This document shows positions 2,513 through 40,082 of a stretch of DNA of 64,000 nt, piece after piece. A program made the translations under genes and the position numbers. Source of the stretch: an uncultured delta proteobacterium (GTDB lineage: Bacteria; Myxococcota_A; Bradymonadia; Bradymonadales; Bradymonadaceae); assembly GCA_963697525.1 (NCBI GenBank), contig OY969087.1, positions 735,236-799,235 of the forward strand, written 5' to 3'. The number at the start of each line of letters is the position of its first letter. Positions within the stretch are counted from its first letter, which is position 1. The notes beneath the pieces were generated by a model, which worked only from the letters and a program-made list of their open reading frames with translations, was not told the origin of the DNA and searched no databases.

Positions 2513-3346
2513 TCAAATCCCACCAATCTCATCAAACTTGATCTGACAGCCCGGCGCCACCTTGAAGGGATCGTCGCCCTCGCAATGGGTCATGATCTCC
2601 GCCCCCTCGTCGCCCACCACCAGGGTGTGCTCGAACTGCGCCGACAGGCTTCGGTCGCGGGTGATGGCGGTCCAATCGTCGTCGAGGACTTTGACCGGGT
2701 AGTCGCCCAGGTTGATCATCGGCTCGATGGTAAAGGCCATGCCCCGGCGGATGCGCATGCCGGTGTTGTGCTTGCCGAAGTGAGGCACCTCGGGAGCGCC
2801 GTGAAACGTGCGCCCGACGCCGTGGCCGATGAAGTCGCGCACCACCGAGAAGCCCTGGGCCTCGGCGTGCTCCTGGATGGCGGCGCCGATGTCGCCGATG
2901 CGCGCGCCGGGGCGCACCTCTTGGATGCCGCGCATCAGACATTGGGCGGTCACCTCCACGAGCTTGCGGGCCTCCTCGGAGACCTCGCCGACGAAGAACG
3001 TCGCGCAGGTATCCCCGTGGAAGCCGCCCACGATGGGGGTGACGTCGACCGAGATGATGTCGCCGTCGGCCAGGATTTGCTCCTCGTTGGGGATGCCGTG
3101 GCAAACGACCTCGTTGATGCTGGTGCAGATGCTTCGCGGAAATCCTTTGTAGCCCAGCGGAGCGTGGGTGGCGCCGCGCTCTTTGGCCCAGGCGTCGGCC
3201 TCGTCGTTGAGGTCCTGGGTGGAGATGCCCGGCTCGACCATCTTCCCGAGATGGCACAACAGCTCGGCGGCGACGCGCCCGGCGTCGCGCATCTTCTGGA
3301 TTTCGTCCTCGGAGAGGATCGTCAGTCGGCGGCGGCGTTTTCTCAT
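2513..3346 (-). CDS. map: Methionine aminopeptidase, type I
   Basis: MetAP-I motifs are present: ICHGIP, DIISVDV, GGFHGD, FIGHGVG, MAFTIEPM. The start is taken at the internal MRKRRRRLTIL of ORF 2513..3433. Confidence 0.9.
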   Translation of the reverse strand: MRKRRRRLTILSEDEIQKMRDAGRVAAELLCHLGKMVEPGISTQDLNDEADAWAKERGATHAPLGYKGFPRSICTSINEVVCHGIPNEEQILADGDIISVDVTPIVGGFHGDTCATFFVGEVSEEARKLVEVTAQCLMRGIQEVRPGARIGDIGAAIQEHAEAQGFSVVRDFIGHGVGRTFHGAPEVPHFGKHNTGMRIRRGMAFTIEPMINLGDYPVKVLDDDWTAITRDRSLSAQFEHTLVVGDEGAEIMTHCEGDDPFKVAPGCQIKFDEIGGI

Positions 3347-3429
3347 GGTGGGGCAGGGGTCTGGGGGTCCAGGGGTCGAGGAATCCGGGGTCCCACGGAC
3401 CCCGAAGTTGGATATAACACCGCTGTCGC

Positions 3430-4440: not shown

Positions 4441-4640
4441 GTAAACCTCAGTGATCGAGTTATTGAGTGATCGAGTGATCGAGTAAACTACAACTGCATA
4501 GCTACAACTGCGTCCGCCCGCCCTGACCGTGACCGTGACCGTGATCGCGTGATCGTGATCGTGATCGTGATCGTGACCGGCCGTTCCCCGCGCCTCAGCG
4601 CAAGAACTCGATCACTCCCTCACTCGATCACTCCCCTCAC
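4441..4640. repeat. Microsatellite (GTGACC/GTGATC)n flanked by inverted GTGATCGAG / CTCGATCAC repeats, intergenic
   Basis: Direct reading: gtgatcgagt x3 at 4449–4485, (gtgaccgtgatc)n at 4526–4580, ctcgatcact x2 at 4603–4640. Confidence 0.75.
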
Positions 4641-5146
4641 CGGCTGCGCCGCCGGAGCATGCGCAACGTCTCCGCGGGATGTCCAAACACCTCGTGCAGC
4701 CGGCGGTTGGCGTCGCGCATCTCCTGGACGAGGTCGTCGGCGATGGCGTCGACCAACACGAACGCCGCCGGGCGGCGCGCCTCGAAGAGGTCGGCAAATG
4801 CCTCGCGGGTCAGGCGCAGCACCTGGCTTCGCTCCAGCGGGGTGCCCGCGCTGCCGTGCGGCCACGGGTAGACCAGGGACGACAGCGTCATCAGCGAGCC
4901 CGGCTCGGTGATCTGGTCGCGGCGTTGGCCGTCGGGCTGGACGCGGTAGCTGATCTCGACGCGCCCGGCCAACAGAATATAGGCCGCGTCTTTGACATCA
5001 CCAGGCGCCCATAACGCCTGGCCGGGCATGACCGTCAGGTGTTCGCCGGCGTCGACGAGCTCGGCGAGGTCGGCGCGCTCCAGCCCGGACAAGAGCCCCT
5101 GCTCGGCGAGGATGTCGACATCTTGGGTTGCGTCTGCCATGGACAA
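4637..5146 (-). CDS. Cyclic-nucleotide-binding (cNMP/CAP-family) domain protein
   Basis: cNMP-binding beta-roll signature: GQALWAPGDVKDAAYILLAGRVEI ... GSLMTLSSLV. 169 aa. Confidence 0.65.
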   Translation of the reverse strand: MSMADATQDVDILAEQGLLSGLERADLAELVDAGEHLTVMPGQALWAPGDVKDAAYILLAGRVEISYRVQPDGQRRDQITEPGSLMTLSSLVYPWPHGSAGTPLERSQVLRLTREAFADLFEARRPAAFVLVDAIADDLVQEMRDANRRLHEVFGHPAETLRMLRRRSR

Positions 5147-5166
5147 TCCTAAAGCGGGGGAGCCGG

Positions 5167-5829
5167 CTAGGCCTTTTTGAAGCGGCCGAGCATCTCGTGG
5201 ACCTGGGATTCGAAATTGTCGAGGTATTGCGCGGGGTCCTCGAAGACCTCCTCGACGCGCGCGTCGGTCTGGCGGCGGCGCTCGCCGAGGATGCGCGCCA
5301 GGCGCAAGATGATCTTGTAGGCCGCCGGCCGGTGCGCGGCGCGCAGCTCGTCGAAGGAGTCGCGGCCCAGCTTAAAGATGGACGCGTCGCTGATCACCTC
5401 GACGGTGGCCGAGCGCGGCGCCCCGGCGATAAGCGACATCTCGCCGACGACCGTGCCCGAGCCCAGCATCGCCAGGATGACGTCCTCGCCGGCGGGCGTG
5501 GTCGCGCGCACCTGCAGCTCGCCGGATTCCACGATATACAGCGCGTCGGCCTCGTCGCCCTGGCGAAATAGCTCCTCGCCGGCGGGCACCGTCAACGGCT
5601 GACAGGCGCCCACCACCTCGCGCACCTCCTCGGGGGCGAGCTTCTCGAAGAGCTCGATGGAGTGGAACACCGACTCGGCATCGCCGGTGACCTCGGCGGC
5701 GGAGGTCGACCCGCCCAGGCCGCCCTCGCCGTCGGGGATGCTCGGGCGCATCGTGACCGTCTCGCTCAGAATCGGCCGCCCCTTCCTCCATCGACTCGTC
5801 GATCGACTCGTCGGGCGAGCCGCTGCCAT
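5167..5829 (-). CDS. Cyclic-nucleotide-binding domain protein (alternative start at 5751)
   Basis: GEELFRQGDEADALYIVESGELQV ... GEMSLIAG matches a cNMP-binding domain. The N-terminus is R/S-rich; an internal ATG at 5751 gives a 194-aa alternative. Confidence 0.6.
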   Translation of the reverse strand: MAAARPTSRSTSRWRKGRPILSETVTMRPSIPDGEGGLGGSTSAAEVTGDAESVFHSIELFEKLAPEEVREVVGACQPLTVPAGEELFRQGDEADALYIVESGELQVRATTPAGEDVILAMLGSGTVVGEMSLIAGAPRSATVEVISDASIFKLGRDSFDELRAAHRPAAYKIILRLARILGERRRQTDARVEEVFEDPAQYLDNFESQVHEMLGRFKKA

Positions 5830-5919
5830 CGTGATTACTCATTCGCCTTGTCCGGGTTCGCGTGGTTGACAAGTCGAGTGTACAGTCGGCGGGTTGCACG
5901 TGCAACGCTGACACGGGAG

Positions 5920-7269
5920 TCAAAAATCGTCGATCTTGTCGACCAACTCCGGCCGGTCGATGAATGGATTGCGCGAGTGCTGGAAGTTGTAGACCGCCTG
6001 GTTGCGCACCCGCTCGGGCCCGTCGACCGGGTCCTGGGTATTCCACTGGCGCAGCACCTGCTCCTCGAAGTCGGGGATATGCTTGTTGTACATCACCGCG
6101 AAGTAGAACAGCGCGCGGGCGACGTTGCCCTTGTGGACGTCGCGCGGCTCGAAGCGCACCGCGCCGGTGGCGTCCTCGCCGAGCTGCGAGCCCCCCTGCG
6201 ACCAGGACACATTGCCGGTGACGATGCCGAAGTAGTTATTCGAGCGGCGCTGGTTGGCCTCGGCGGTCGCCGGGAACAGGTGGTGCAGGTCGGACTTGGC
6301 CGGCTCGACCTGGGCGCCCTGGCTCTGCGGCCAGGTATGCTCGGCGTTGAACCCCTGCTGGTAGGCGTCGTCGGCGTTGCTGGTGGTGATGGTCACCCCG
6401 GTGTACACGCCGGTGACCTTGCCGCCGTGGTTGTCCACGGTGCTGAACATATAGTCGCGCGCCTGGCTGTACGAGTAGGTGATGTGGCCCTGGTGGTCGG
6501 CGCGAAGGGCGTCTTCCAGCGCGCCGTTGGTCAGCCCGGCGTAGGGGTCGTTGCCGGCCTGGGGGTCGCAGGCGTCGCCCAGCCCGTCGCCGTCACTGTC
6601 GAGCTGGTCGGGGTTGGGCTCGCTGACGCAGTTGTCCAGCGAGTCGTTGACCCCGTCGTTATCGGCGTCGCTGGCGTCGGCGCACGGCCCGCTCTTGCAC
6701 TCCAGGGTGAACTGGAAGTGGCCGTCGACATCCGAGAAATTCTGCAACGCCAGCTTGAAGTGGCCGCCGTTGTAAAACTCCCAGCCCGCGTCGAGCTGGC
6801 TCTCGTTGTAGGGGATATGAGCGTCGGTATCTCCCTGCGGGTTGCCCCACACCAGGGCGTCGGTCTGGCTGTCCGAAAAGATCGACACCGACGGGTTCCA
6901 CGACGGATCACCCACGATGCGCAGCCAGATGGTCACCCGGTCGTTCTGGTTGGCCAACAGGTTGAGGTCGATCTCACCCTGGGCGGGGATGATCCCCTCG
7001 AACTCGGCGCCGGCGGTAGTGATCTCGTCGGGGAGGTTTTGGGACCCGACGTCCGACGCCGCGTCCGCCCCCGCATCGGCGCCCGACGACACGGTGTCAG
7101 ACACCGTGTCGGCCCCGGCATCAGCGGTGATCCTCGCATCCGTCCCCCCGCTGTCGTTCTGGGTGACGCCGCCCCCACCGGTGTCGGTCTTGCCGTTGGT
7201 GGCGTCTGCAGAACAGGCGGCGAGGACGAGAGAAGTGGCGAGGGCGACGAGGTACGAACGATGCGTCAT
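5920..7269 (-). CDS. Secreted lipoprotein: thrombospondin-type-3 (DxDxDGxxD) calcium-binding repeats fused to an Endonuclease-I (EndA/NucM-family) extracellular nuclease domain
   Basis: Lipobox LVLAACS. TSP3 repeats DADNDGVNDSLDNC and DSDGDGLGDACD. C-terminal AEHTWPQS ... DLHHLFP ... NQRRSNNYFG resemble Endonuclease_1 motifs. Confidence 0.6.
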   Translation of the reverse strand: MTHRSYLVALATSLVLAACSADATNGKTDTGGGGVTQNDSGGTDARITADAGADTVSDTVSSGADAGADAASDVGSQNLPDEITTAGAEFEGIIPAQGEIDLNLLANQNDRVTIWLRIVGDPSWNPSVSIFSDSQTDALVWGNPQGDTDAHIPYNESQLDAGWEFYNGGHFKLALQNFSDVDGHFQFTLECKSGPCADASDADNDGVNDSLDNCVSEPNPDQLDSDGDGLGDACDPQAGNDPYAGLTNGALEDALRADHQGHITYSYSQARDYMFSTVDNHGGKVTGVYTGVTITTSNADDAYQQGFNAEHTWPQSQGAQVEPAKSDLHHLFPATAEANQRRSNNYFGIVTGNVSWSQGGSQLGEDATGAVRFEPRDVHKGNVARALFYFAVMYNKHIPDFEEQVLRQWNTQDPVDGPERVRNQAVYNFQHSRNPFIDRPELVDKIDDF

Positions 7270-7522
7270 GGGGCGGCTTGGCTAAAATTGTCGGCGTTTG
7301 TCGTGGAAAGACTTCGTAGCCGCACACAATAATGCAATCCGATGGAAAATGCGAATTGCATTGTGCGCTTACGCCGCCCCGAACCCGCGCGCGAGTCCCA
7401 CGTCGTCGCGCTCGCCTCCATCGCGGGGGAGAATATCAGCGCCGGCGTCGACCGCCGCCGACGTTCGCAATCTGGGAAAACGCGCCAGGTCTCGACTTGC
7501 GAACCGTTAGAGCCGCCTACTC

Positions 7523-8182
7523 CTAATCTCTGTTCGGAGCGCCTAACGGAAAAAAGTGTCGGTACGGGCGTGCCTCGTCGACGACTCGCGCCACCGAAGC
7601 GCGGGACAACAGTCGAGCTCTGTAGGTGGCGAGAGCGTCGTGGCGATCCGAGATCGGATGAACCCAGTCTGCGTAGAAGAGTGCCGGCGCAGCGGCACAA
7701 TCTGCGATCGTGAAGCGACCGCAAGCCGCCCAATCCTTCCCCTCCAAGCGAGGCTCCAGCCAATCGTAGCAGCGCTCCAGCGCTGCACGAGCCTCTGAGA
7801 CGCCACGCTCGTCGCTCTCCGCCTTGTCACGTAGCGCGTCGCCGACAATGCGCTGCATCGGTGCATGGACATAATCGTCGAACACATCGGCCATCATGCG
7901 AGCCTCCAACGCTTCGCGAGGATCGCTCGGAACCATTGACAATTCATTTCCATGAAACAGGTCGAGGTATTCAATCACCACGCTGCTTTGCGTTAGTTGG
8001 TTGTCTCCGTCAACCAGTGCCGGAAATTGTCCCGTGGGAGAGAGTTCGGCAATCCGCGCCTGATTCTCCGGGTGTTCGGCATCGACCATTTTGAACTCGA
8101 AGCTCACCTCGCGCTCATACAGCGCAATCAACGGTTTCCATACGAACGAGGCAAAGGGGTGCCCATAAAGTGCAAGCGTCAT
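7523..8182 (-). CDS. Glutathione S-transferase
   Basis: GST N-terminal thioredoxin-like fold (LYGHPFASFVWKPLIAL ... FPALVDGD ... ESSVVIEYL) and C-terminal helical domain. 219 aa. Confidence 0.85.
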   Translation of the reverse strand: MTLALYGHPFASFVWKPLIALYEREVSFEFKMVDAEHPENQARIAELSPTGQFPALVDGDNQLTQSSVVIEYLDLFHGNELSMVPSDPREALEARMMADVFDDYVHAPMQRIVGDALRDKAESDERGVSEARAALERCYDWLEPRLEGKDWAACGRFTIADCAAAPALFYADWVHPISDRHDALATYRARLLSRASVARVVDEARPYRHFFPLGAPNRD

Positions 8183-27409: not shown

Positions 27410-27625
27410 CTCCTTCGGCATCTTGGCCTCGTTCGCCTTTCCTTCGGTGCGTGGGCATCTTGGCCTCGTTCGCCTTTCCTTCGGTGCGTGGGCATCTTGG
27501 CCTCGTTCGCCTTTCCTTCGGTGCGTGGGCATCTTGGCCTCGTTCGCCTTTCCTTCGGTGCGTGGGCATCTTGGCCTCGTTCGCCTTTCCTTCGGTGCGT
27601 GGGCATCTTGCCCTCGTTAGCCGAA
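27410..27625. repeat. 37-bp tandem array (about 5.8 copies): tcggtgcgtgggcatcttggcctcgttcgcctttcct
   Basis: Direct reading. Contiguous identical units with no spacers. Lies between the convergent stops of the TetR gene and the CYP102 remnant. Confidence 0.9.
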
Positions 27626-30013
27626 GACGTCCGCCACGTAACGCCCATCGGCCTCCAGGGCCTCCAGCCAGGCCTTGGCGTCGGCGTCGGTGCAGCCGGT
27701 TCGCTCCTGGTGGATGCGCGCGAGCGTATCGCGCACGGCGGGAGCCATGCGCTGGCCGTCGCCGCAGACGTAGACGTGGGCGCCGTTGTCGAGCAACGCG
27801 CCGACGCGATCGCGCTCGGCCCACAGGCGGTGTTGGACGAAGGTGATGTCGCCGTCGGGTTTTTTGAAAAAAGCCGGGTGGACCTCGACGAGGCCGGCCT
27901 CTTCGAAGGCGGCGAGTTCGTCGCGATACAGGAAGTCGACCTCGGGGTGGTCGCAGCCGAAGAAGAGCGCGGCCGCGCCGAGGTCGTCGCCGGCTTCTTG
28001 GCGAGCGGCGCGCTCCTGCAAAAAGCCTCGGAAGGGGGCGAGCGTGCGGCTGTCGGCGGGCGGGTGAAAGTCGGGCCCGGAGGGGCGCACGGTGACCTCG
28101 ACGTGCTCGCCGGGGCGACGGCGGGCGAGGAAGTTCGAGCAGGTGCCGCGGTAGCGGCCGTGGCCCGACCAGGCGGGGGCGTTGACGACGGCGACGGTGA
28201 GCGCGCAGCGCGTGTCGTCGACCGAGGGCGACGAGGAGATGGAGTATTGGCGCGGGCGCATCGGCGGCAGCATCTCCAAAAACTCGGCAAAGCCGAGGGT
28301 GCATGAAGCGGTCTGCTCGAGGAGGTCGAGCAGGCTGACATTCGTGTCGAGCACCTCGGCGCGGTAGCGCTCGGGGTCGTTGGCCAGGGCCTGTAGGCGC
28401 TGCTTTTCGGGCGGGCACGGGGTGAGCTCCGCCAGACGGCCGAGGTCGCGGCGGGTGGCCGGTTGGCCGAGCTCGACGTAGCGGCCCAGGAGCTCGGCGA
28501 CGGCGATGGGTCGGCCGGTCGGCAGCGCGCTGGTCTCGGCGCGGGCGCTCGACAGGCGGATGAGTTCGTCGAGTTCGAAGCCGAAACGCTCGGCAGCGCG
28601 CGCGACGCGCTCGGGGTCGTTCTCGGGGAGCACCGCCAGGTAGTCGCCGACCTCGTAGCTCAGCCCGTCGGGCAGCTCCAGCTCGACGTGGCGCTTCGAG
28701 CGCCCCAGCGGCGAGGACATGTCGACGAGCTCGCGGTTTTCGAGCACCGTCGCCAGGCGGGTGCCGTGGGCGTCGACCAGCGGGTCGGCGGCGGCGTCGA
28801 GGCGCTCGATCTCGTAGAGCGGCCCGTCGTCGACCGCCTCGACGGTGACGTCGAATTCGTCTTCGAGCGTCGGCCACACCGGCTCGTACCAGGCGTCGAA
28901 GTCCCCGAAGAAGTCGCCACGCGCGTCGGCCTCGCCGCGCTCCATGAGGCGCTCGGCGCCGGCGCGGCTCAAGGCCTCGTCGACCCGGCGCGGCACCGCC
29001 TGGTAGGTCGCCGACCAGTCGCGGTTTCCGCAGCCAAAGACCGCGTAGCGCACGCCGTCGAGCGCGCCGGGCTCGAGTCCGTCCAGCCACTCACAGAACA
29101 CACGGGCGTTGTCCGGCGGCTCGCCGTTGTACGAGGCGGTGACCACGGTCAGCGCGCCGCCGGTGGGAAGGTCGCCGACGTGGTCGTCCATGGCGGCGAG
29201 CTCGGCGTCCCAGCCGCGCGCCTGGGCGTCGCCGGCGATGCGCCGGGCGAAGGCTTCGGCGGAGCCGGAGTTGGAGCCGTAGAGGACGAGCAGGGGCGTG
29301 CCGTGCGCGGCAGCGCTTGGCGCCTGCAGCGCGGGGCTTGGGGCTTGGCGCCTGCGGCGCGGGGCTTGGAGCGGAGCATCGGAGGAGCGCAGGCTTGGCG
29401 CGGAGGAGCGGGGGTGGGCCTGGATGTGGAGGGCGGCGGGCTTGAGGGTGAGCGTTTCCTTGATGTCGAGCTGGTAGTCGTCGACGTCGACGAGATCAAA
29501 GCGGCGAAGCATCATCGCGAGGACGAGCTTGGCCTCCTGCATGGCGAACGGGCGGCCAATGCAGGCGCGTTGGCCGCGGCCGAACGGCTTCCAGGCGTTG
29601 GCCGGGATCTGGTCGATGTGCTCGGGGGCGAAGCGCTCGGGATCGAAGCGCTCTGGATCGTTCCACACCGTCGGGTCGCGGTGGAGCATGGGGAGCAGCA
29701 CGAACAGCTCCTCGCCGGCTTCGACGCCGTAGCGCCCGCCAATGGTGGTGTCTTCCTTGGGGTACAGCGCGTAGGCCGGCGCCGTGGGCCACAGCCGCAA
29801 CGATTCGCGAAGCACCTGGTCGATGTAGCCCAGCTCGCGCAGGTGCTCGAAGCGCGGCGCGTCGGCGCCGAGCACGCGGTCGGCTTCCTCCTGGGCGCGG
29901 GCGAGCACCTCGGGGTGCTGAAGGAGTTGGTAGATCGTAAACGAGAGCAGGCCGCTGGTCTTCCCGCGCTCGCCTACGGCGCCACCACGCCTAAGCCTTG
30001 TTAAACCCGACAA
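27617..30013 (-). pseudogene. 5'-truncated CYP102-family (P450 BM3-like) P450–NADPH-reductase fusion gene; the first ~250 aa of the heme domain are missing
   Basis: The ORF begins mid I-helix (GLLSFTIYQLLQHPEV). It contains the heme-loop FGRGQRACIGRPFA, the flavodoxin LLVLYGSNSGSAE and FAD/NADPH domains. No P450 N-terminus exists in any frame upstream, and the next gene starts at 30107. Confidence 0.7.
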
Positions 30014-30106: not shown

Positions 30107-30916
30107 ATGCAACAGTTTCTCCAGATCGCGCTCGCCTTTCCCACGGTCGTCTTTACGGCCGTACTCTTGGTATTGGGGCTGTATTGGTTGTTGGTGATCC
30201 TGGGGGCGCTGGACCTGGACACCTTCGACATGAGCGCCCACGTCAATATGCACGGCCACGTCGACGCCCATGTGCACCTGGACGCCGACGTCGACCCCGA
30301 CGGCATGTTGCCGGGCCCGGACCTCATCGAGGCGGTGATGAGCGCGTTAGGGATGGGCACCGTGCCGCTGACGGTCATCCTGAGCTTTCTGACGCTGACC
30401 GCCTGGATGGTCTCGTTCGCCGCCGTCTACTACCTGGCGCCGATGATCGGCGGGCTGACCTCGCTGTACGCCGCGTTGTTCGGCGTGGGCAGCTTCGTGG
30501 CCGCGCTGCCGGTGACGATGCTGATCATGCAGCCGTTCATCCAGTTGTTCGACACCAAGGGTGAGAAGCACGGCGGCGAGTCGCTCATCGGCTCGGTCTG
30601 CCGGGTGACCACCAGCCGGGTCGACGCCAAATTCGGCCAGGCCGACGTCGACGACGGCGGCGCCGGGCTTCTGCTGCCGGTACGCTGTGAGGCCCAAAAC
30701 AACGGGCTGAGCCGCGGCTCCAAGGCGCTGATCATCGACTACGACGACGAGCAGCACGCCTACATCGTCGAGCCCTACGACGTGCTCGTGGGCGACGACA
30801 AAAAGCAGCACGACGGCGATGCCGAGGCCATCCTCGACCAGAAGATCACCGCGGCCGCCGAGGAACAAGAGGCCAACGAACAGCAACCCGAATCCGCGAC
30901 TTCCACCCACAAATGA
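30107..30916 (+). CDS. NfeD-like / YqiJ-like (DUF1449-type) membrane protein with a C-terminal OB-fold
   Basis: TM1, a His/Asp-rich loop (HVNMHGHVDAHVHLDADVD), two more TMs, then GSVCRVTTSRVDAKFGQADVDDGGAGLLLPVRC (NfeD C-terminal beta domain). Sits immediately upstream of a flotillin gene, as in yqiJK. Confidence 0.6.
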   Translation: MQQFLQIALAFPTVVFTAVLLVLGLYWLLVILGALDLDTFDMSAHVNMHGHVDAHVHLDADVDPDGMLPGPDLIEAVMSALGMGTVPLTVILSFLTLTAWMVSFAAVYYLAPMIGGLTSLYAALFGVGSFVAALPVTMLIMQPFIQLFDTKGEKHGGESLIGSVCRVTTSRVDAKFGQADVDDGGAGLLLPVRCEAQNNGLSRGSKALIIDYDDEQHAYIVEPYDVLVGDDKKQHDGDAEAILDQKITAAAEEQEANEQQPESATSTHK

Positions 30917-30931
30917 CGCAGGTGACCACTC

Positions 30932-33070
30932 ATGCATGACTTCAACGCCATGAATTACGCGTGGCTCTTCTATCTCGTCGGCGGTGCCGTCATCCTCGGC
31001 GGCATCATCGCCATGTTCATGAAGTTTTACGTCAAGGTCGACCAGGGCCAGGCCCTCATCGTCAACACGATGAAGGACATCAAGGTCACCTTTACCGGCG
31101 CCGTGGTGCTGCCCATCGTGCACCGCGCCGAGATCATGGACATCTCGCTGAAGACCGTCGAGATCGATCGACGCGGCAAGGAAGGGCTGATCTGCGCGGA
31201 CAATATCCGCGCCGACATCAAGGTCACCTTCTTCGTGCGCATCAACAAAACGCGCGAGGACGTGCTGCGCGTCGCCCAGTCGGTGGGCTGCAAGCGCGCC
31301 AGCGACCAGGACAAGATCGAGGAGCTGTTCGTCTCCAAATTCTCCGAGGCGTTGAAGACCGTCGGTAAGCAGCTCGAATTCGAGGCGCTGTACAAAGAGC
31401 GGGTGCACTTCCGCGAGAAGATCATCGAGATCATCGGCCAGGACTTGAACGGCTACGCCCTGGAAGACGCCGCCATCGACTTCCTCGAGCAGACCCCCGT
31501 CGAGAGCCTCGACCCCCAGAATATCCTGGACTCGCAGGGCATCCGGAAGATCACCGAGCTGACCTCGGAGCAGAAGTTTCGGACCAACGAGTTCGCCAAC
31601 AAGTCCAAAAAGGACATCGGCAAAAACGACCTCGAGACCAAGATGACCATCTTGGAGTACGAGCGCCAGCAGGCCGAGGCCGAGGCCAAGCAGCACCGCG
31701 AGATCGCCGTCGTCCAGGCGCGCGAGCAGGCCGAGGCCCAGGAGCTGACCTCCAAGGAGCAGGCCCGCGCCCAGGTGGCCACGCTCAAGGCCCAGCAGGA
31801 GATCGAGGTCCAGAAGATCAACAAGCAGCGCGAGCAGGAGGTCGCCCAGAAAAACCGCGAGCGCGTCATCGCCGTGGAGACCGAAAACGTCGAAAAAGAG
31901 CGCCAACTCCAGGTCATCGCCCGCGAGCGCGAGACCCAATTGCAGCGCATCTCCAAGGACAAAGAGGTCGAGGTCGAGAAGAAGAATATCGCCGAGATCG
32001 TGCGCGACCGCGTCTCGGTGGACAAGACCGTGGCCGAAGAGGAAGAGCGCATCAAAGACGTGCGCCGCATCGCCGAGGCCGAGCGCGAGAAGAAGGCCGC
32101 CGTCGTCGCCGCCGAGGGCGAGGCCGAGCAGGCCCTGGTCAAGGACATCAAGAAGGCCGAGGCCGCCGAACAGGCCGCCCAGCACAAGGCCAAGCAGAAG
32201 GTCATCGAGGCCGACGCCGACCTCGACGCCGCCGAGCGCACCGTCAAGGCCAAGAAGTTGGTCGCCGAGGGTGTCACCGCCGAGGAGGCCGCCCCGGGCT
32301 TGGCGCAGGTCCGCGTCAAAGAAGCCGACGCCCAGGCCAACGAGAAGCAGGGCCTGGTGGAGGCGCGCATCACCAAAGAGAAGATGATGTCGCAGGCCGC
32401 GGGCAAAGAAGAGCAGGGCATGGTCGAGATTCGCCTGACCCAGCAACGCGCCGAGGCCATCGAAAAAGAGGGCATGGCTCAGGCCAAGATCATCCGCGAG
32501 AAGGCGGTCGCCGAGGCCGCCGGCGAGCAGGAAAAAGGCCTGGCGCAGGTGCGCATCAAGGAGGCCAGCGCCGACGCCATCCGCAAAGAGGGCACCGCCC
32601 ACGCCGACGTGCGCGCCCAGCAGGGCGAAGCCGAGGCCAAGGCCATCCTCGACCGACTGGCCGCCGAGGCCAAGGGCCTGACCGAGAAGGCCAAGGCCAT
32701 GAAAAACTTCGACGAGGAGGGCTTCAACTTCGAGAAGTTCCAGATGCAGCTCGACCTCGAGCGCGACCTCACCCTCGAGAAGCTCGCCAAGGGCATCGAC
32801 ATCGCCAAGGCCCGCTCCGCCGTGCTCAGCGAGGCCCTCAAGGCCGCCAATATCAGCATCGTGGGCGGCGACACCTCGGTGTTGGACAACTTCACCAAGT
32901 CCATCACCGCCGGCAAGATGCTCGAGGGGTTCATGGACACCAGCCCCACCGCGCGCAGCCTGCTCGACAAGGTCATGGGCAAGGCCGCCAAGGCCGCCAA
33001 GGCCGACGGCGCGGCCAAACCCAACGGTGAGGTCGAAGAGGCGATCACTGATATGACGCCGGGTGAGTGA
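30932..33070 (+). CDS. Flotillin-family (SPFH/Band-7, YqiK-like) protein
   Basis: N-terminal TM, an SPFH domain (QGQALIVNTM ... VTFFVRI), a long EA-rich coiled coil and flotillin-type C-terminal repeats. 712 aa. Confidence 0.85.
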   Translation: MHDFNAMNYAWLFYLVGGAVILGGIIAMFMKFYVKVDQGQALIVNTMKDIKVTFTGAVVLPIVHRAEIMDISLKTVEIDRRGKEGLICADNIRADIKVTFFVRINKTREDVLRVAQSVGCKRASDQDKIEELFVSKFSEALKTVGKQLEFEALYKERVHFREKIIEIIGQDLNGYALEDAAIDFLEQTPVESLDPQNILDSQGIRKITELTSEQKFRTNEFANKSKKDIGKNDLETKMTILEYERQQAEAEAKQHREIAVVQAREQAEAQELTSKEQARAQVATLKAQQEIEVQKINKQREQEVAQKNRERVIAVETENVEKERQLQVIARERETQLQRISKDKEVEVEKKNIAEIVRDRVSVDKTVAEEEERIKDVRRIAEAEREKKAAVVAAEGEAEQALVKDIKKAEAAEQAAQHKAKQKVIEADADLDAAERTVKAKKLVAEGVTAEEAAPGLAQVRVKEADAQANEKQGLVEARITKEKMMSQAAGKEEQGMVEIRLTQQRAEAIEKEGMAQAKIIREKAVAEAAGEQEKGLAQVRIKEASADAIRKEGTAHADVRAQQGEAEAKAILDRLAAEAKGLTEKAKAMKNFDEEGFNFEKFQMQLDLERDLTLEKLAKGIDIAKARSAVLSEALKAANISIVGGDTSVLDNFTKSITAGKMLEGFMDTSPTARSLLDKVMGKAAKAAKADGAAKPNGEVEEAITDMTPGE

Positions 33071-36000
33071 TGTCCCAAGACGCCAAACAACCCGCGGTCT
33101 CCGCCTCCAACTACGACATCATCCGCAAGCGCCTCGAAGACCAGGCGCGCGAGCTCGGCGAGCGCACCGACGCGCTCAACGACAAGCGCGCCCAGATGTT
33201 CGGGGGCGTGGAGATGACCGTGGTCGGCCAGGAGCGCGTGCGCACCGAGCATAACTGCGTGCCGCGCGACATCGTCAACGTCGGCGGGCGCATGCTCTTT
33301 GGCTACAACGTCAAGTTGGGGCTGAAGGCCAAGACCGACGTCGACGACGTCTTCAGCCTGCACGCCTTCCAGAAGGACGACGACGGCTTCAAGCTCGAGC
33401 CTCTGGCGCAGGACACCAAGGATAACTTCCTCGGCGAAGAGAAGTTCGTCCGCGATTTCGACGAGCTGTACACCTACTACAAGGACGCGCGCTTAAGCCA
33501 ACTCATCAAGCTGGACACCCGGCTTTTGGCGGTCTTCCAGATCGGCACGACCCTCGAAGACCGCCGTGTGCTTCGCTGGGGGCTCGACGCGGTCGACAAC
33601 ATCCAATATATCGACAACGCCGGGGACCGGGACTTGACCCCACCCGAGCCCCACGACTTCCAGTGGCGCACGGTCACCCGCGAGGACCACCACAAGGGCA
33701 AACACCCCCACGTCAGCATCCTCGACGAGGTCTTCGTCGAGACGGTCGGCGGCGACCTGACCATCAAGATCGAGGACAACACCGACGACGGCAAAGGCAT
33801 CTACAACGAGCCCGTCGACGACCTGCACCAGTCGCTGGGCGACGGCGAATTTCTCTTCGCCAAGATCGGCAACCTCATCGTCCTCAAGATCTTGCCCTAC
33901 CGCGAAGAAAAGTGGCGCTACTTCGTGTTCAACACCCTCACGAAACAAGTCGAGCGCATCGACGCCATCGGCCAATCGTGCATCCAACTGCCCGACGAGC
34001 AGGGCATCGTCTTTCCCGGCGGCTTCGTGCTGTCCAACGGGCAGTCCAAAAACTTCGACGCCAACGTCGAGGGCATGCGCGTCCACCAGGTCGTCCGCTC
34101 GGCCAACGGCGAGGACGTGCTGTACGTGTTTTACCGCCCGCAGGACGGCAGCTACCTGCTCTTGGCGTACAACGTCATCCGCAAGGACGTCCAAAACCCG
34201 ATCAACTGCCACGGCTACTCGCTGTTCGACGACGGCACGATGATCGTGTTTCGTTTCCAAGGTGACGAGCCCACCCGCGTCCACCCGATGCAGATCTGGC
34301 AGACGCCCTTTGTCAGCGACGAGCACGCCGCCAACCAGCCCCAGGACGACTCGCTGTTGTCCAATATCGGCAACGCCGAGTTGGTGCGCGGCATCTCCGA
34401 CGCCTTCAGCCTATGCTCGATGATCGACGATCTCGAGCCGTCCATGGCGGTCTACGAGGCGCTGATCACCAGCGCTCAGCGCCTGCTCGACGCCTACTTC
34501 TGGCTGGACAAGGACGAGGTCGGCGACCTCGCCGCAGTCGTCGGCGACATCATCGACACCGCTGGCCTGGTGGTCGACGAGTTTCAGAAGGTCACCGCCC
34601 TCAAAAAGAAGGCCAAAGAGGCGCTCGCCGACGCCGAGCAAAAGCAGCGCTCGCTGTTTACCGACGTGCGTTACAACGACTGGAAGCGCATCGAGCGCTT
34701 CGTCGAGGGGCTGGACAAATTGCGCCAGCAGCGCGGCCGGATCATCACCTTGAAGGAGACGCGCTACATCGACGTCGACCGCCTCGACGAGCTCGAGGCC
34801 GAGGTCACCGAGCGCTACGACGACTTGAGCAAGGCCACCGTGGAGTTCCTGCTCGACGACCAGGCCTTAAAGACCTACCAAGACGGCCTCGACGAGCTCG
34901 AAAGCAAGGTCGACAACCTCGAGAATACCAAGCAGGCCGCCGAGCTCGACGACAAGCTCGACACCATCAACAAGGGCCTGAATTTACTCACCGAAGTCGT
35001 CAGCGGCCTGCAGGTCGACGATCCCACCAAGCGCACGAAAATACTGGAGAATATCGGCGAGGTCTTGAGCCGCCAAAACCGCGACCGCGCCAAGCTCGAG
35101 CGCAATCAAAAGCAGCTCGCCGAACAAGAAGGCAAGGCCGAGTTTGCCGTGCAATTCCAGCTCTTTACCCAGAGCGTGACCAGCGCGTTGGGCATGTGCG
35201 ACACACCCAAGGCCTGCGACGAGCAGTTGACGCGCATGATGGTCCAGCTCGAGGAGTTGGAGAGTCGGTTTAGCTCGTTCGACGGCTTTTTGACCAAGCT
35301 CGCCGAGAAGCGCGACGAGGTCTACGAGGTCTTCGAGTCGCGCAAACGCGCGCTGTTGGACGAGCGCCAGCGCCAGGCCAACAACATCGCCCGCAGCGCC
35401 GACCGCATCCTGTCGGGCGTGGTGCGCCGGGCGTCCAATATGGACTCGGTCGAAGACCTCAACGCCTACTTCGCCTCCGACGCCATGGTCATGAAGGTGC
35501 GCGACCTGGCCACAAAGCTTCGCGAGCTCGAAGAGGACGTGCGCGCCGACGACATCATCACCCAGCTCAAGGCGTCCAAAGACAAGGCCATCCGCCAGCT
35601 TCGCGACAAACTCGACCTCTTCGAAGGCGGCGACAACGTCATCAAGTTCGGCCAGCATCGCTTCAGCGTAAATACGCAGGCCGCCGAGCTGACCATGGTG
35701 CCCGACGGCGACACCATGGCGCTGCACATCACCGGTACCGAATTCCTGGAGTCCATCGACGACCCCGACTTCGCCAAAACGCGCCCGTTTTGGAACCAGC
35801 CGCTGGTCTCCGAGACCGACCAGGTCTACCGCGGCGAGTATCTGGCCGCGGCCATCGTCTTCGACGCCGAAAACGCCGCGAATGGCCTGACGGTCGCCGA
35901 GCTGCAGAAGCGGCGCAAAGACCCCGCCGAACTCAAAAAGCTCATCCGCGGGTATATGGACGAGCGCTTCGACGAGGGCTACGAGCGCGGCGTGCACGAT

Positions 36001-38415
36001 GAGGACACGGCCAAGATCTTGGACGCGTTCATGAGCATGTACGCCACCGCCGGCCTGCTTCGGTTCACCCCGGCGGCGCGGGCGCTGGCGACGATGTTCT
36101 GGGCGTTTGGCGACCAGCCCGAGCGACGCAAGAATTGGGCGCGCCGGGGCGTGAGCATGGGGCGTCTGCGCGAGATCTTCGGCCACGGCGAGCCGCTGAG
36201 GGCGTTGGGCGAGGAGTTGGCGGGAGAAATCGCGGACTTCATTGCAGCCACATCCTTCGGTGCCAGGGCTTCTAGCCCTGGTTTTAGTGAGGGAGTCATC
36301 GCCGAAGCCGGCCGCTACCTCGCCGAGGAGCTCGTCGACCAAACGCCCCGTTTCGTCGAATCCAGCGAGGCCACCGCCCTGCGCGACGCCTTCTTTAGCT
36401 ACCTCGACCAGAAGCACTCCCGCCTCGACTTCACCGAGGACCTCGCCCAGATCGAAGACAACCTCGAGGCGAGCTGGCAGCTCGTCGTCGCCTGGCTCGC
36501 CGGCTTCGCCCAGAGCCAGCTCGACGAGGACGTCAGCCACCTCATCCCCGAGGTAGCCGCGCTCGTTCTCACTGGCGACCATATCGAGCGTCAGACCGCC
36601 GAGGCGCGCACCACCGCCGAGGTGAGTGACCTGTTGGGCGACCATCCGCGCATCCAAAACGGCGCGCTGAAGCTTCGCCTCGACGAGTTTTTGACCCGGC
36701 TTCGCCGCTACACCGACGAGCACGTGCCCGCCTACCGCGAGTACAAGCGCCTGAGCCGCGCGTTGCTCGACCGCGAGCGCCAGCGGCTGCGCGTCGACGA
36801 CCTCGACCCACAGGTGTTCAGCGGTTTTGTGCGCAACCAGCTCATCGACGAGGTCTACCTGCCGCTCATCGGCGACAACCTCGCCAAGCAGATGGGCACC
36901 GTCGGCGAGGACAGCCGAAGCGACCGCAGCGGCTTGTTGCTTTTGATCTCGCCGCCCGGCTACGGCAAGACGACCCTGATGGAGTATATCGCCGACCGCC
37001 TCGGCCTGATGTTCATGAAGATCAACGCGCCGTCGTTGGGCCACGACGTCGTCTCGTTGGACCCCGCGGAGGCGCCCAACGCCACCGCCCGCCAGGAGGT
37101 CGAAAAGATCAACCTGGCGCTCGAGATGGGCAATAACGTCATGCTCTACCTCGACGACATCCAGCATACCCACCCGGAGTTTTTGCAAAAATTCATCTCG
37201 CTATGCGACGCCACCCGCCGCATCGAGGGCGTGTGGAACGGCAAGACCAAGTCCTACGACCTGCGCGGCAAGCGCTTCTCGGTGGTCATGGCCGGCAACC
37301 CCTACACCGAAAGTGGCGAGCGCTTCCAGATCCCCGACATGCTCGCCAACCGGGCGGATACGTACAACCTGGGCGACATCCTGAGCGGCAAGCAGGGCGC
37401 CTTCGAGATGAGCTACATCGAAAACGCGCTGACCTCCAACAAGGTCACCGCCCCGCTGGTCACCCGCGAGCGAAGCGACATCGGCCGGTTCATGAAGATG
37501 GCCGGCGGCAAGCAGATCCCGCTGACCGAATTCGACTACGCCTACTCCTCGGTGGAGGCCGGCGAGATCGTCAACGTGCTGCAGAAGCTGATGGACATTC
37601 GCGACGTCGTCTTGAAGGTCAACCAGCAATACATCGAGTCGGCGGGCAAAAAAGACGAGTACCGCACCGAGCCGCCCTTCCAGTTGCAGGGAAGCTACCG
37701 CAACATGAACCGCATGGCCGAGAAGGTCGCCTCGGCGATGAACGACGCCGAGGTCCAGGAGGTCATCGACAACCACTACAACCAGGAGTCCCAGACGCTG
37801 ACCACCGGCTCCGAGCAAAACTTGCTCAAGCTCGCCGAGCTTCGCGGCAAGCTCACCGACGAGCAAAAACAGCGCTGGGCCGAGATCAAGCGCGAGTACA
37901 CCCGCCGCAAGATGATGGGCGGCGACGACGATCCCATCTCGCGCGTCGCCGGCCCGCTGGCCACGCTCGTCCAGCGCCTCGAAGACGTGCACAGCACGCT
38001 GGAAGCCGACAACGTCTCCACCCACCTCGGCGACATCCGCGGCGTACTTGAAAAGGCTTTGCAATCGGCCGAAAAGGCCGCGAAGCAGCGCCCCCACGTG
38101 GAACTGCAACAAATCCCGGCAAACCAGCAGTCGCAGGCCGCCCAACAGGCCTCCCCCGCCGCCGTCGAAGCCCTCTCCGAGGCGCTTTTGTCCCTGCAGC
38201 AGGCCAAACTCGAGGTCCAGGTCGTCGGCGACATGCCCACCAAACTAGGCGAAATCTTGGAGAGCCAGCTCGGGCTTATCGAGAGCGCGATCTTGCCGCT
38301 GGCCAAATTCGTCTACCGCGAGGCCGAAGACGACCAAAAGCGCGACGAGCAGCTCGTCGAGGTCATGCGCAAGCTCGACGCCCTGGGTCGCCAGGCGGTG
38401 CCGGAAGGCGAGTAA
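33067..38415 (+). CDS. Giant (1782 aa) coiled-coil protein with a dynein/MoxR-like AAA+ ATPase domain; function unknown
   Basis: ATGA overlap with the flotillin stop. Walker A LLISPPGYGKTTLMEY (nt about 36955), Walker B NVMLYLDDIQ (nt about 37140), sensor/Arg region NRADTYNLGD. Long coiled coils at aa 480–1000 and 1500–1782. No other family motif recognised. Confidence 0.75.
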   Translation: MMSQDAKQPAVSASNYDIIRKRLEDQARELGERTDALNDKRAQMFGGVEMTVVGQERVRTEHNCVPRDIVNVGGRMLFGYNVKLGLKAKTDVDDVFSLHAFQKDDDGFKLEPLAQDTKDNFLGEEKFVRDFDELYTYYKDARLSQLIKLDTRLLAVFQIGTTLEDRRVLRWGLDAVDNIQYIDNAGDRDLTPPEPHDFQWRTVTREDHHKGKHPHVSILDEVFVETVGGDLTIKIEDNTDDGKGIYNEPVDDLHQSLGDGEFLFAKIGNLIVLKILPYREEKWRYFVFNTLTKQVERIDAIGQSCIQLPDEQGIVFPGGFVLSNGQSKNFDANVEGMRVHQVVRSANGEDVLYVFYRPQDGSYLLLAYNVIRKDVQNPINCHGYSLFDDGTMIVFRFQGDEPTRVHPMQIWQTPFVSDEHAANQPQDDSLLSNIGNAELVRGISDAFSLCSMIDDLEPSMAVYEALITSAQRLLDAYFWLDKDEVGDLAAVVGDIIDTAGLVVDEFQKVTALKKKAKEALADAEQKQRSLFTDVRYNDWKRIERFVEGLDKLRQQRGRIITLKETRYIDVDRLDELEAEVTERYDDLSKATVEFLLDDQALKTYQDGLDELESKVDNLENTKQAAELDDKLDTINKGLNLLTEVVSGLQVDDPTKRTKILENIGEVLSRQNRDRAKLERNQKQLAEQEGKAEFAVQFQLFTQSVTSALGMCDTPKACDEQLTRMMVQLEELESRFSSFDGFLTKLAEKRDEVYEVFESRKRALLDERQRQANNIARSADRILSGVVRRASNMDSVEDLNAYFASDAMVMKVRDLATKLRELEEDVRADDIITQLKASKDKAIRQLRDKLDLFEGGDNVIKFGQHRFSVNTQAAELTMVPDGDTMALHITGTEFLESIDDPDFAKTRPFWNQPLVSETDQVYRGEYLAAAIVFDAENAANGLTVAELQKRRKDPAELKKLIRGYMDERFDEGYERGVHDEDTAKILDAFMSMYATAGLLRFTPAARALATMFWAFGDQPERRKNWARRGVSMGRLREIFGHGEPLRALGEELAGEIADFIAATSFGARASSPGFSEGVIAEAGRYLAEELVDQTPRFVESSEATALRDAFFSYLDQKHSRLDFTEDLAQIEDNLEASWQLVVAWLAGFAQSQLDEDVSHLIPEVAALVLTGDHIERQTAEARTTAEVSDLLGDHPRIQNGALKLRLDEFLTRLRRYTDEHVPAYREYKRLSRALLDRERQRLRVDDLDPQVFSGFVRNQLIDEVYLPLIGDNLAKQMGTVGEDSRSDRSGLLLLISPPGYGKTTLMEYIADRLGLMFMKINAPSLGHDVVSLDPAEAPNATARQEVEKINLALEMGNNVMLYLDDIQHTHPEFLQKFISLCDATRRIEGVWNGKTKSYDLRGKRFSVVMAGNPYTESGERFQIPDMLANRADTYNLGDILSGKQGAFEMSYIENALTSNKVTAPLVTRERSDIGRFMKMAGGKQIPLTEFDYAYSSVEAGEIVNVLQKLMDIRDVVLKVNQQYIESAGKKDEYRTEPPFQLQGSYRNMNRMAEKVASAMNDAEVQEVIDNHYNQESQTLTTGSEQNLLKLAELRGKLTDEQKQRWAEIKREYTRRKMMGGDDDPISRVAGPLATLVQRLEDVHSTLEADNVSTHLGDIRGVLEKALQSAEKAAKQRPHVELQQIPANQQSQAAQQASPAAVEALSEALLSLQQAKLEVQVVGDMPTKLGEILESQLGLIESAILPLAKFVYREAEDDQKRDEQLVEVMRKLDALGRQAVPEGE

Positions 38416-38462: not shown

Positions 38463-38951
38463 CTACTCGAAAGTTGGCGGGGTACTCGGCAGCTTCTTCG
38501 CGGCATGAAGCACCGCTACGACGGAAATATGGTGTTCGTCGACGCGATAGATGATTCGGTAGGGAGCCTTGATCACCTCGCGAATGGAGGGATCGGCATA
38601 TTCGGGCACATGGCGGCCCGACTGCGGGAAAGTTTCGAGCCGTGCCGCTGATTCGATGATTTCCTCGACGACCCGCTGCGCGGCTTCAGGTGCGTTTCCT
38701 CTCACATAGTCGTAAATATCTTGGAGATCATTGAGAGAATCGGTGCTCCAACGCAGCTTCACGTGTCGCCCAATCCGAGCCGTGCCCGAACTTCGTCTGT
38801 GGTCAGGGTGTGTCCTTTCTTCGATGCTCTCCAGCCCCTGTTCAATCTTGCGACGCACGTAGATCTTGTACTCGAGTTCCTCCCACGTCGCGTCGTCGGG
38901 CAACTCTTCGACCAGCTTACGTGCTTGTTCTTTGATTCCGGGCGTTGGCAT
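38463..38951 (-). CDS. ParE/RelE-family toxin with an in-frame N-terminal antitoxin-like (addiction-module component) domain
   Basis: N-terminus KEQARKLVEELPDDATWEELEYKI resembles antitoxin or addiction-module components. C-terminus LNDLQDIYDYVRGNAPEAAQRVVEEI ... YRIIYRVDEHHISVVAVLHAAK matches the ParE/RelE fold pattern. One continuous frame. Confidence 0.5.
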   Translation of the reverse strand: MPTPGIKEQARKLVEELPDDATWEELEYKIYVRRKIEQGLESIEERTHPDHRRSSGTARIGRHVKLRWSTDSLNDLQDIYDYVRGNAPEAAQRVVEEIIESAARLETFPQSGRHVPEYADPSIREVIKAPYRIIYRVDEHHISVVAVLHAAKKLPSTPPTFE

Positions 38952-39086
38952 CGCACCTCCTGTTGCTGGATACCGACTTCTCCACTGTGCATTCTAACAA
39001 CCAGCCTGAATTGTTCCAACCGGTACGGGGTAACGACGGCCGTAGGGCGCGGCGAGGCCGCGGGGGTGGTCGCGCTGGCAAGGATT

Positions 39087-40082
39087 TCATGCCCCAAACG
39101 CCTCAGCGACCAGCTCGTAGGAGCGCACGCGGTCGTCATGGCTGTGGATGAAGCTCGTGATCATCAGCTCATCAGCGCCGGTGCGCTCGGCGAACGCGCT
39201 CAGCTCGGCATGGACCGTCTCCGGGCTGCCGATGAACTGCTGGCGGCGGTTCTTCTCGACGACCGCGCGCTCCATCGGAGAGTACGGATAGTCGGCGGCC
39301 TGCTGGGGCGTGGGCAGCGGCGCGAACTCGCCGCGCTGCAAGCGCACTCGGCTCAGGTCGAGCGTCTTGGCCAAAAAGTCGGCCTCCTCGTCGGTCTCGG
39401 CGCAGACCACCGACACCGCCAGGATGACGTGCGGCACGGGAAACGCCTCGGACGGTTGAAAATTCTCGCGATACGCCTGCAGGGCCGGCTCGGCGGGCGC
39501 CGGGCTAAAGTGGCTCGCAAAGCCGTAGCCCAGCCCCAACTGGCCGGCGAATTTCGCGCTGGCGCCGCTCGAGCCGAGCATCCAGATCGGCGGGAGTTTG
39601 ACGCCGTTGGGCATCACCCGCACCCCGTCGAGCGGGTGGCCTTCGGGGAAATCCCCGCGCGACAGGCGAATCAAATCCTGGAGCTCTCGGGCGAAGAGCG
39701 ACGGGTCCGACGGCCGAAGCGCCCTCACCGTCTTCTGGTCGGTGCCGGGCGCGCGCCCGATCCCCAGGTCGATGCGCCCGGGATGCAGCGCCTCGAGCGT
39801 ATGGAAATTCTCGGCGACCTTGAGCGGCGCGTGGTTCGGCAGCATGACGCCGCCCGAGCCTACCCGAATGCGCTCGGTCGCCTGGGCGACGTGCCCGATG
39901 AGGATCTCCGGCGACGAGCTCGCCACACTGGGCATGCCGTGATGCTCGGCAAACCAGTGGCGCTCATAGCCGAGTTCCTCGCCGAGCCTGGCGAGCGCGA
40001 GGCTATCTTGCAGGGCCTGAGGAGCAGTCGAACCCTCGCCAATTGCGGCGAGGTCGAGGATCGAAAGCGGGATGGATGTCAT
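39087..40082 (-). CDS. LLM-class flavin-dependent oxidoreductase (luciferase-like monooxygenase family)
   Basis: TIM-barrel LLM motifs (LGYERHWFAEHH ... IRVGSGGVMLPNHAPLKVAENF ... IWMLGSS). Start at the internal MTSIPL; 332 aa. Confidence 0.8.
   Translation of the reverse strand: MTSIPLSILDLAAIGEGSTAPQALQDSLALARLGEELGYERHWFAEHHGMPSVASSSPEILIGHVAQATERIRVGSGGVMLPNHAPLKVAENFHTLEALHPGRIDLGIGRAPGTDQKTVRALRPSDPSLFARELQDLIRLSRGDFPEGHPLDGVRVMPNGVKLPPIWMLGSSGASAKFAGQLGLGYGFASHFSPAPAEPALQAYRENFQPSEAFPVPHVILAVSVVCAETDEEADFLAKTLDLSRVRLQRGEFAPLPTPQQAADYPYSPMERAVVEKNRRQQFIGSPETVHAELSAFAERTGADELMITSFIHSHDDRVRSYELVAEAFGA

Follow-up and report, generated by a model that had tools for sequence, protein, structure and literature searches.

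We analysed a 64,000-nt stretch of contig OY969087.1 (assembly GCA_963697525.1, positions 735,236 to 799,235 of the forward strand) from an uncultured delta proteobacterium of the Bradymonadales, hereafter the window, and in it a cassette of three genes that an initial annotation had put forward as an undescribed system. The listing of open reading frames (ORFs) of the window contains three consecutive ORFs on the + strand, here called g1, g2 and g3, and the public gene calls give identical products for all three, with exact agreement for g1 and g2. Gene g1 (30107-30916, + strand; 269 amino acids, aa) encodes an inner-membrane protein of the YqiJ/NfeD type, g2 (30932-33070, + strand; 712 aa) a divergent flotillin of the YqiK type, and g3 a giant cytoplasmic AAA+ protein that bears the NCBI product name 'DNA repair ATPase'. 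The spacer between g1 and g2 is 15 nt long (30917-30931, + strand) and contains, as read from the sequence, the ribosome-binding site AGGTGA. Gene g3 begins within the end of g2, whose TGA stop codon occupies 33068-33070, and may start either at the ATG at 33070, as in the public call (33070-38415, + strand; 1781 aa, 1-nt overlap), or at the GTG at 33067 (33067-38415; 1782 aa, 4-nt overlap). This gap and this overlap bear out the tight linkage first reported for the three genes; the g2/g3 overlap had been written as ATGA, and the coupling is real, but the actual junction reads GTGATG and ATGA is inexact. Judged from this layout, g1, g2 and g3 form a single, translationally coupled operon and are co-produced. 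The nearest named relative of g3 is found in Persicimonas caeni, also of the Bradymonadales, with 81% identity.

A scan of one genome per species yielded at least 589 confirmed relatives of g3, and the best 80 of these, from Myxococcota, Actinobacteria, Gamma- and Betaproteobacteria and Acidobacteriota, provided the loci counted throughout this work. Upstream of g3 and on the same strand, 78 of these loci carried a homologue of g2 and 73 a homologue of g1; both loci without g2 lie at contig ends, as do those without g1, with the single exception of the locus from Myxococcales bacterium 68-20 (L030). Gene order, strand and short gaps were kept in nearly all 80 loci, and clustering of all neighbouring ORFs left only g1, g2 and g3 as universal. 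The three-gene arrangement is far beyond chance, and the three genes are co-conserved, as the initial annotation had supposed. Neither does the giant belong to a well-characterised family that only occasionally neighbours flotillin genes: an SPFH/NfeD pair stood upstream wherever upstream DNA could be checked, in L030 without g1. Conversely, Escherichia coli K-12 contains yqiJ-yqiK without a third gene. Because g3 was not found without the pair where upstream DNA exists (L030 lacking only g1), but yqiJ-yqiK of E. coli lacks g3, the dependence appears to run from the ATPase to the scaffold pair. Pairwise protein distances of g1, g2 and g3 correlate (r 0.87-0.94), which fits inheritance as a unit, with shared phylogeny alone also contributing to the correlation.

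The spacing of the genes varies among loci. Actinobacterial loci typically show four-base overlaps, whereas in L008, L020 and L060 larger inserts separate g1 from g2. The spacer between g2 and g3 measures 410-480 nt in four loci from Pseudomonas and Lysobacter (L018, L025, L039 and L057), as compared with less than 150 nt elsewhere. Lampropedia hyalina (L076, 4841-7932) carries a 3.4-kb insert between g2 and g3, containing an NYN-domain gene and a toxin-antitoxin pair of the MNT (Polbeta nucleotidyltransferase)-HepT type, and the cassette therefore tolerates splitting. Likewise, about 6.4 kb separate g3 from a shorter flotillin-like ORF (493 aa) in Myxococcales bacterium 68-20 (82-7926 of the locus); the intervening stretch encodes surface-type proteins with OmpA/thrombospondin repeats and DUF11 domains, no g1 homologue was found there, and the locus may be a degraded or rearranged cassette.

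Direct searches with g1 and g2 of the window were uninformative, with no Pfam match at E<=0.1 and nothing useful from sequence searches of NCBIfam and the PDB. We therefore identified both proteins by profile comparison, building family alignments from the related loci and aligning these with E. coli YqiJ and YqiK by hhalign. The g1 family matched YqiJ with a probability of 94% (E 8.5e-8), in agreement with the YqiJ/NfeD-like character first assigned to it; Pfam YqiJ_N was matched by three of 30 family members and NfeD by two of the 30. The order along the family alignment is a first transmembrane (TM) segment, a variable acidic loop, two further TM segments and a conserved beta-rich C-terminal block, with a predicted OB-like, beta-rich soluble domain at residues ~158-225 of g1. 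The initial annotation had drawn attention to a His/Asp-rich loop, and such a loop is present (residues ~36-72, or ~36-70 on a narrower delimitation; window 30212-30322). In the homologues, however, its length varies between a few residues and about 90, it may be acidic or rich in Gly, Ala and Glu, and only its acidic character recurs. Because its length and sequence vary in this way, the His/Asp loop is lineage-specific and is unlikely to form a conserved metal site.

The g2 family matched YqiK with a probability of 99.9% (E 8e-33, 407 columns, about 27% identity), which upholds its assignment as a YqiK-type flotillin. Pfam Band_7 was reached by only four of 29 family members, g2 of the window not being among them, and g2 scored far under the NCBIfam FloT cut-off. 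Its layout comprises an N-terminal membrane anchor, an SPFH domain, a long helical region rich in Glu, Ala and Lys, and a conserved flotillin-type C-terminal tail, and the mean identity of g2 within the cassette is 55% across phyla. By these profile comparisons, g1 and g2 belong to divergent clades of the YqiJ and YqiK types.

From its N-terminus, g3 (domains all encoded on the + strand) is predicted to contain a helix followed by a beta-propeller and a helical bundle (residues 29-478; 33151-34500), which coincide with Pfam DUF3686 (E 1e-204); a coiled-coil-like helical arm (residues ~480-870; 34504-35676), which includes DUF7902 (residues 599-682; E 8e-25); a globular, all-helical middle domain (residues ~920-1240; 35824-36786); an AAA+ module (residues ~1285-1650; 36919-38016), within which AAA_5, AAA and AAA_22 match residues 1291-1415; and a helical, low-confidence C-terminal tail (residues ~1651-1782; 38017-38412) with a column conservation of 0.12-0.19. 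The statement that the giant ATPase could be placed in no described family did not hold, since DUF3686, DUF7902 and AAA families cover it and a product name already exists. We modelled residues 2-520 and 850-1660 with AlphaFold2. The first model (predicted local distance difference test, pLDDT, 86.7; predicted template modelling score, pTM, 0.85) shows about 6-7 four-stranded blades, and its top Foldseek matches were all beta-propellers (E 1e-7 to 1e-5), with low TM-scores. The second (pLDDT 79.5) contains, besides the AAA+ module, a small beta unit and an all-helical domain at ~920-1240 that is predicted with confidence. The structural check that had been proposed for the giant gave a propeller fold for the N-terminal part. 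The middle domain has no recognisable relative: none of the top 60 fold-search matches aligns there, and on the model this domain is new-looking. About 800 aa of coiled coil had been suggested as well; a crude heptad-periodicity scan gave a heptad-like signal over ~400 aa (~450-870), and residues ~920-1240 correspond to the globular helical domain.

The dynein/MoxR-type P-loop ATPase module proposed for g3 was recovered both by Pfam, through the AAA_5 and AAA matches, and by its conserved motifs. The AAA+ region is the best-conserved part of g3 among the 80 sequences, in all of which the Walker A PPGYGKTT (SPPGYGKTT in the window, 36949-36975), the sensor-1 Asn (Asn1411) and the motifs PDMLxNRAD and LQGSYR are invariant. 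In the window, Arg1429 lies in the motif IPDMLANRAD, LQGSYRNMN is situated in the lid, and a beta-hairpin is predicted ahead of sensor 1; the Walker B (residues 1359-1364; 37141-37158) reads LYLDD(IQH), with DD and not DE. The invariant Walker A, sensor-1 and Arg-motif residues argue for a working nucleotide site. In the fold search with the model, the nearest AAA+ folds were the MoxR-type maturases NorQ and CbbQ, together with dynein and midasin. We also considered a classical-AAA assignment, following a PDB profile match to p97, NVL and Rix7, and rejected it, as that match is at the level of the P-loop only and both the fold search and Pfam favour AAA_5/MoxR. Pfam found no protease, nuclease or DNA-binding domain in g3, and its translation shows no obvious hydrophobic segment, as judged without a formal TM scan.

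The closest counterpart with a name is in Pseudomonas aeruginosa, where the gene order is DUF2170, PspA, a 213-aa protein, a 688-aa protein, a 1746-aa protein, PLD, YaeQ, RecJ and an M4 protease. With lasB as PA3724, this order corresponds to PA3732 down to PA3724. Over their full length, g1 is 33% identical to PA3730 (E 1e-31), g2 49% identical to PA3729 and g3 46% identical to PA3728 (P0131, 1746 aa). By sequence, g1, g2 and g3 are orthologous to bacC, bacD and bacE (PA3730-PA3728), and they keep the same order and strand. The P. aeruginosa g3 is a core-genome locus in a fixed position beside recJ and lasB, and its product falls in one 90% cluster with 3222 member sequences. As compared with the complete bacABCDEF cluster (PA3732-PA3727; PA14_16140-16200), the window is without bacA (DUF2170/YjfI), bacB (PspA), bacF (PLD-type) and a recognisable sigma-54 promoter. 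All features of the core are nonetheless found in it: a flotillin with a TM anchor, an SPFH domain and a helical, flotillin-type tail, a three-TM protein of the YqiJ/YuaF type, and an AAA+ protein, adjacent and co-directional.

Among the 80 loci, genes for DUF2170 (YjfI, CesT-like) and PspA/IM30 lie directly upstream of g1 in 19, all of them gamma- or beta-proteobacterial. Downstream of g3 there is a PLD/HKD-family gene in 10 loci and a gene for a rhomboid intramembrane protease in seven, sometimes both in series; examples are L015 (13155-13844) and L018 (13223-13789 and 13790-14479), together with other gamma-proteobacterial loci. In an eighth rhomboid locus, L048, the rhomboid gene is upstream and on the opposite strand. 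The available parts of the papers cited here make no mention of the rhomboid association.

What has been published on the Pseudomonas genes concerns mostly the upstream members of the operon. BacA is the DUF2170 protein and BacB is PspA (PMC10948618, PMC2587700), bacA-F form a single sigma-54 operon, and a bacA mutant raises all its products together (PMC10948618). Osmotic shock induces PA3731, and a PA3731 mutant shows defects in biofilm formation, swarming, rhamnolipid production and virulence (PMC2587700); the phenotypes published for the cluster concern bacA and bacB, not bacE. Phage infection up-regulates PA3728-PA3732 (PMC12041424), membrane-damaging staphylococcal phenol-soluble modulins (PSMs) raise PA3731 (bioRxiv 2023.01.29.526047), and PA3728 is among the genes recurrently mutated in cystic-fibrosis isolates (PMC8190622). 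The BacD orthologue PA14_16180 has been named PaFlo3 and is paired with a short NfeD (PMC13086221). Our literature search found no paper on the ATPase itself, and PA3729 appeared in an Arc-pathway paper only as a background protein in pull-downs, for which reason we set that report aside.

Contrary to the initial annotation, the operon is not undescribed. Ravi et al. 2024 described the same operon, consisting of CesT/Tir-PspA genes, a band-7/flotillin protein, a three-TM protein of the YqiJ/YuaF type and an AAA+ protein with a coiled coil and a beta-propeller, and its gene content and domain architectures match those reported here point by point (PMC11237479). These authors proposed chaperone-like or membrane-dynamics roles and noted that abbreviated operons without PspA are more widely distributed; the window represents this abbreviated form (flotillin, YqiJ-like protein and AAA+), and we see no substantive difference from their description (PMC11237479). 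The operon class is already published, and its Pseudomonas version has been named and has phenotypes; the window adds a PspA-less example from the Bradymonadales. Beyond Ravi et al. 2024, we add the comparison of 80 loci, the matches in at least 589 species, structure models for two regions of the ATPase and the observation that DD is invariant in its Walker B.

Comparison with other systems delimits the cassette further. In E. coli, YqiJ-YqiK (Hinderhofer et al. 2009, PMC2636767), an SPFH2/flotillin with a short NfeD-type partner, matches g1-g2 as a two-gene membrane pair, with the same order and a short gap, but it is followed by sRNA (small RNA)/toxin genes and hldE in place of a third gene. 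Measured against the AAA+ core of the MoxR family (NorQ, CbbQ, RavA) and the dynein/midasin AAA_5 modules, g3 has an invariant Walker A, sensor-1 Asn and Arg, but its Walker B is DD in all 80 sequences and not hhhhDE; a VWA partner, the hallmark of MoxR systems, was not found among the conserved or scanned neighbours of the 80 loci. HflK/C-FtsH, like prohibitin with the m-AAA protease, functionally pairs an SPFH scaffold with an inner-membrane AAA+ machine. The likeness of the cassette to HflK/C-FtsH in this coupling is one of analogy: g3 shows no TM segment and no protease or peptidase domain, its AAA+ module is MoxR/dynein-like and not of the classical clade of FtsH, and g1, g2 and g3 are co-operonic. 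In proteobacteria, the cassette shares an operon with PspA, which belongs to the ESCRT-III superfamily, and a functional parallel with ESCRT-III and Vps4, in which an AAA+ partner would remodel a polymer bound to the membrane, is hypothetical; g3 is not a homologue of Vps4, has no MIT domain and belongs to another AAA+ clade.

Our preferred explanation, to which we give a probability of about 0.6, is that the window contains a Bradymonadales copy of the bacC-bacD-bacE-type core and that this core works as a module for stress or remodelling at the inner membrane, its AAA+ protein acting on a flotillin/NfeD scaffold or through it. The link to membrane stress is suggested by the gene context and by the expression data from Pseudomonas. 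In such a module, a single translationally coupled operon, as read from the sequence, would yield the three proteins, and g2, anchored by its N-terminus, would use its long helical region to oligomerise, forming a large scaffold or cage at the cytoplasmic side of the inner membrane, by comparison with other SPFH proteins. Gene product g1 would reside in the same membrane patch and bind the flotillin through its OB-like C-terminal domain, as the 'partner-binding domain' of NfeD and the universal pairing of SPFH with NfeD proteins suggest. The giant g3 would be recruited to the scaffold through its beta-propeller and coiled-coil arm and assemble through its AAA+ module, and by binding or hydrolysing ATP it may remodel this scaffold or its clients, take them apart or load them. 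The presumed role of the module is to maintain or repair the cytoplasmic membrane when the envelope is under stress. Among gamma- and beta-proteobacteria this core is part of one operon with PspA (ESCRT-III-type) and a CesT-like chaperone; in the genome of the window it would work by itself or together with a PspA whose gene lies elsewhere.

Several observations weigh against this explanation. No report demonstrates a physical interaction, a localisation or an ATPase activity for a protein of the g3 family, and the stress data come from Pseudomonas and mostly from the PspA and BacA genes, not from bacC-E. No PspA, DUF2170, PLD or rhomboid gene occurs in the 64-kb window, and neither a sigma-54 (TGGCAC-N5-TTGC-like) nor a sigma-70 consensus was found upstream of g1, so that stress regulation is not shown here. 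PDB searches revealed no solved structure related to g3 beyond the P-loop. The Walker B has DD in 80 of 80 g3 sequences, against the usual hhhhDE, and from this motif g3 may be a slow switch instead of a motor. The Walker B of DnaA is similar, with DDIQ. Finally, deletion of PaFlo3 in strain PA14 lowered biofilm formation by only about 20% (PMC13086221).

A bolder form of the same idea, which we advance tentatively and regard as doubtful, is that g3/BacE represents a new class of bacterial mechano-enzyme, with a MoxR/dynein-like ring and long coiled-coil arms tipped by beta-propellers, which would dock on a flotillin cage and control its assembly, opening or disassembly by means of ATP. If true, it would be the first dedicated ATPase partner of a flotillin and would drive a microdomain cycle comparable to that of Vps4 with ESCRT-III, with the invariant DD Walker B and the 320-residue helical domain contributing to a new mode of control.

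On the left of the cassette in the window lies a gene on the - strand (27617-30013; homology at 29405-29959) for a fusion of P450, flavodoxin and FAD/NAD reductase modules resembling P450-BM3. Similarity begins at BM3 residue 269, 147 nt from the start of g1, and the first ~268 residues of the haem domain are nowhere in the window; by sequence, this gene is probably a pseudogene that has lost its 5' end and marks the border of a rearrangement or an insertion. The guanine-cytosine (GC) content is 0.62-0.65 in the cassette versus 0.72 in the left flank. On the right, a ParE-family toxin gene (38463-38951, - strand) is convergent to g3 and ends 47 nt past its stop codon, and an ORF upstream of it (38759-39139, - strand) occupies the position expected of an antitoxin, with no Pfam match. 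Beyond ParE there are genes for a luciferase-like monooxygenase and then an esterase, the neighbours in the window being metabolic. A motif scan found no convincing terminator around the operon, the window has no tRNA gene, and there are no direct or inverted repeats flanking the cassette. The truncated neighbour, the GC difference and ParE hint at a past rearrangement or acquisition, but do not add up to a defence island.

The initial annotation had also connected SPFH/NfeD pairs with conflict systems and raised the possibility of a defence-island location, and we consider a role in anti-phage defence or conflict improbable. On this alternative, of the abortive-infection type, the flotillin/NfeD pair would sense a perturbation of the membrane by an invader, upon which the AAA+ protein would set off an effector, for instance the PLD-type enzyme of proteobacteria, or a shutdown of the cell. 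It would account for the induction of PA3728-PA3732 reported upon phage infection (PMC12041424), although such induction is expected of any envelope-stress (phage-shock) regulon, and PLD/HKD and rhomboid genes follow g3 in some loci; the three-gene form itself contains no effector domain. Toxin-antitoxin genes adjoin the cassette in two cases, ParE in the window and MNT-HepT with the NYN gene in L. hyalina, and the truncated gene upstream and the lower GC of the cassette are compatible with horizontal acquisition. A g3 homologue (NC_009444.1, 92440-93846) is also carried by pQBR103, a 425-kb megaplasmid of P. fluorescens SBW25. On the other side, g3 homologues occur in 13 of 72,556 records of a plasmid collection, several of which are chromosome-sized, and in none of 50,697 phage records, the locus holds a conserved core-genome position in P. 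aeruginosa, and in the window neither a tRNA gene nor repeats at the cassette were found and the neighbours are metabolic, an observation on which no enrichment statistics were run. In PADLOC-DB v2, g1 and g2 had no match, and the sole match of g3 at E<0.01 was to the SMC-like LmuB (E 2e-6, residues 513-880), which we rejected as reflecting coiled-coil composition. Together, the lack of a meaningful PADLOC match, the absence from phages, the few plasmid records and the core-genome position do not sustain the proposed link to defence, and no defence island was seen.

A function of the cassette as a dedicated chaperone for the assembly, quality control or export of specific membrane clients, for example in secretion or vesiculation, as opposed to general repair, strikes us as unlikely, if less easily dismissed. 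It would parallel the MoxR ATPases that mature complexes, or HflK/C corralling FtsH, and the MoxR-type maturases NorQ and CbbQ, with dynein and midasin, are indeed the nearest folds to the AAA+ module. A propeller is a typical platform for binding peptides and proteins, and SPFH proteins scaffold client enzymes, as HflK/C does for FtsH (background knowledge, cited also in PMC13086221). The loss of rhamnolipid secretion and swarming in bac mutants (PMC2587700, PMC10948618) would agree with an export client; the reported phenotypes, however, are those of bacA and bacB and not of the ATPase, no client gene is conserved across phyla, where the three genes alone are universal, and the conserved neighbours include no VWA partner. 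The name 'DNA repair ATPase' and the Pfam description ('ATPase involved in DNA repair') suggest yet another function, to which we attach hardly any credence. These names are accompanied by weak coiled-coil matches to LmuB, marginal P-loop matches to RuvB and the presence of recJ three genes downstream in P. aeruginosa. The RuvB matches, with E~2e-3, are confined to ~40 residues around the P-loop and fall far below the family cut-offs, the proximity of recJ is not kept in other loci, g3 has no DNA-binding or nuclease domain and no SMC/ABC (RecN-type) head, its universal partners are two membrane proteins, and our literature search found no paper tying DUF3686 (PF12458) to repair. We thus rejected this annotation for want of a supporting domain or context.

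An inner-membrane stress or remodelling module remains our preferred reading of the cassette, and the comparison of loci identifies the three-gene core, and not the pair with PspA, as the universally conserved unit. The function of bacterial flotillins is unclear, and to our knowledge no energy-consuming partner of these proteins has been characterised. A flotillin, its NfeD partner and a large conserved AAA+ protein encoded in one coupled operon, and this in several hundred species, would hence offer a good entry point for biochemistry. In P. aeruginosa, the operon responds to phage and to membrane damage and affects biofilm formation and virulence, and it is the biochemical role of the giant ATPase that deserves attention.

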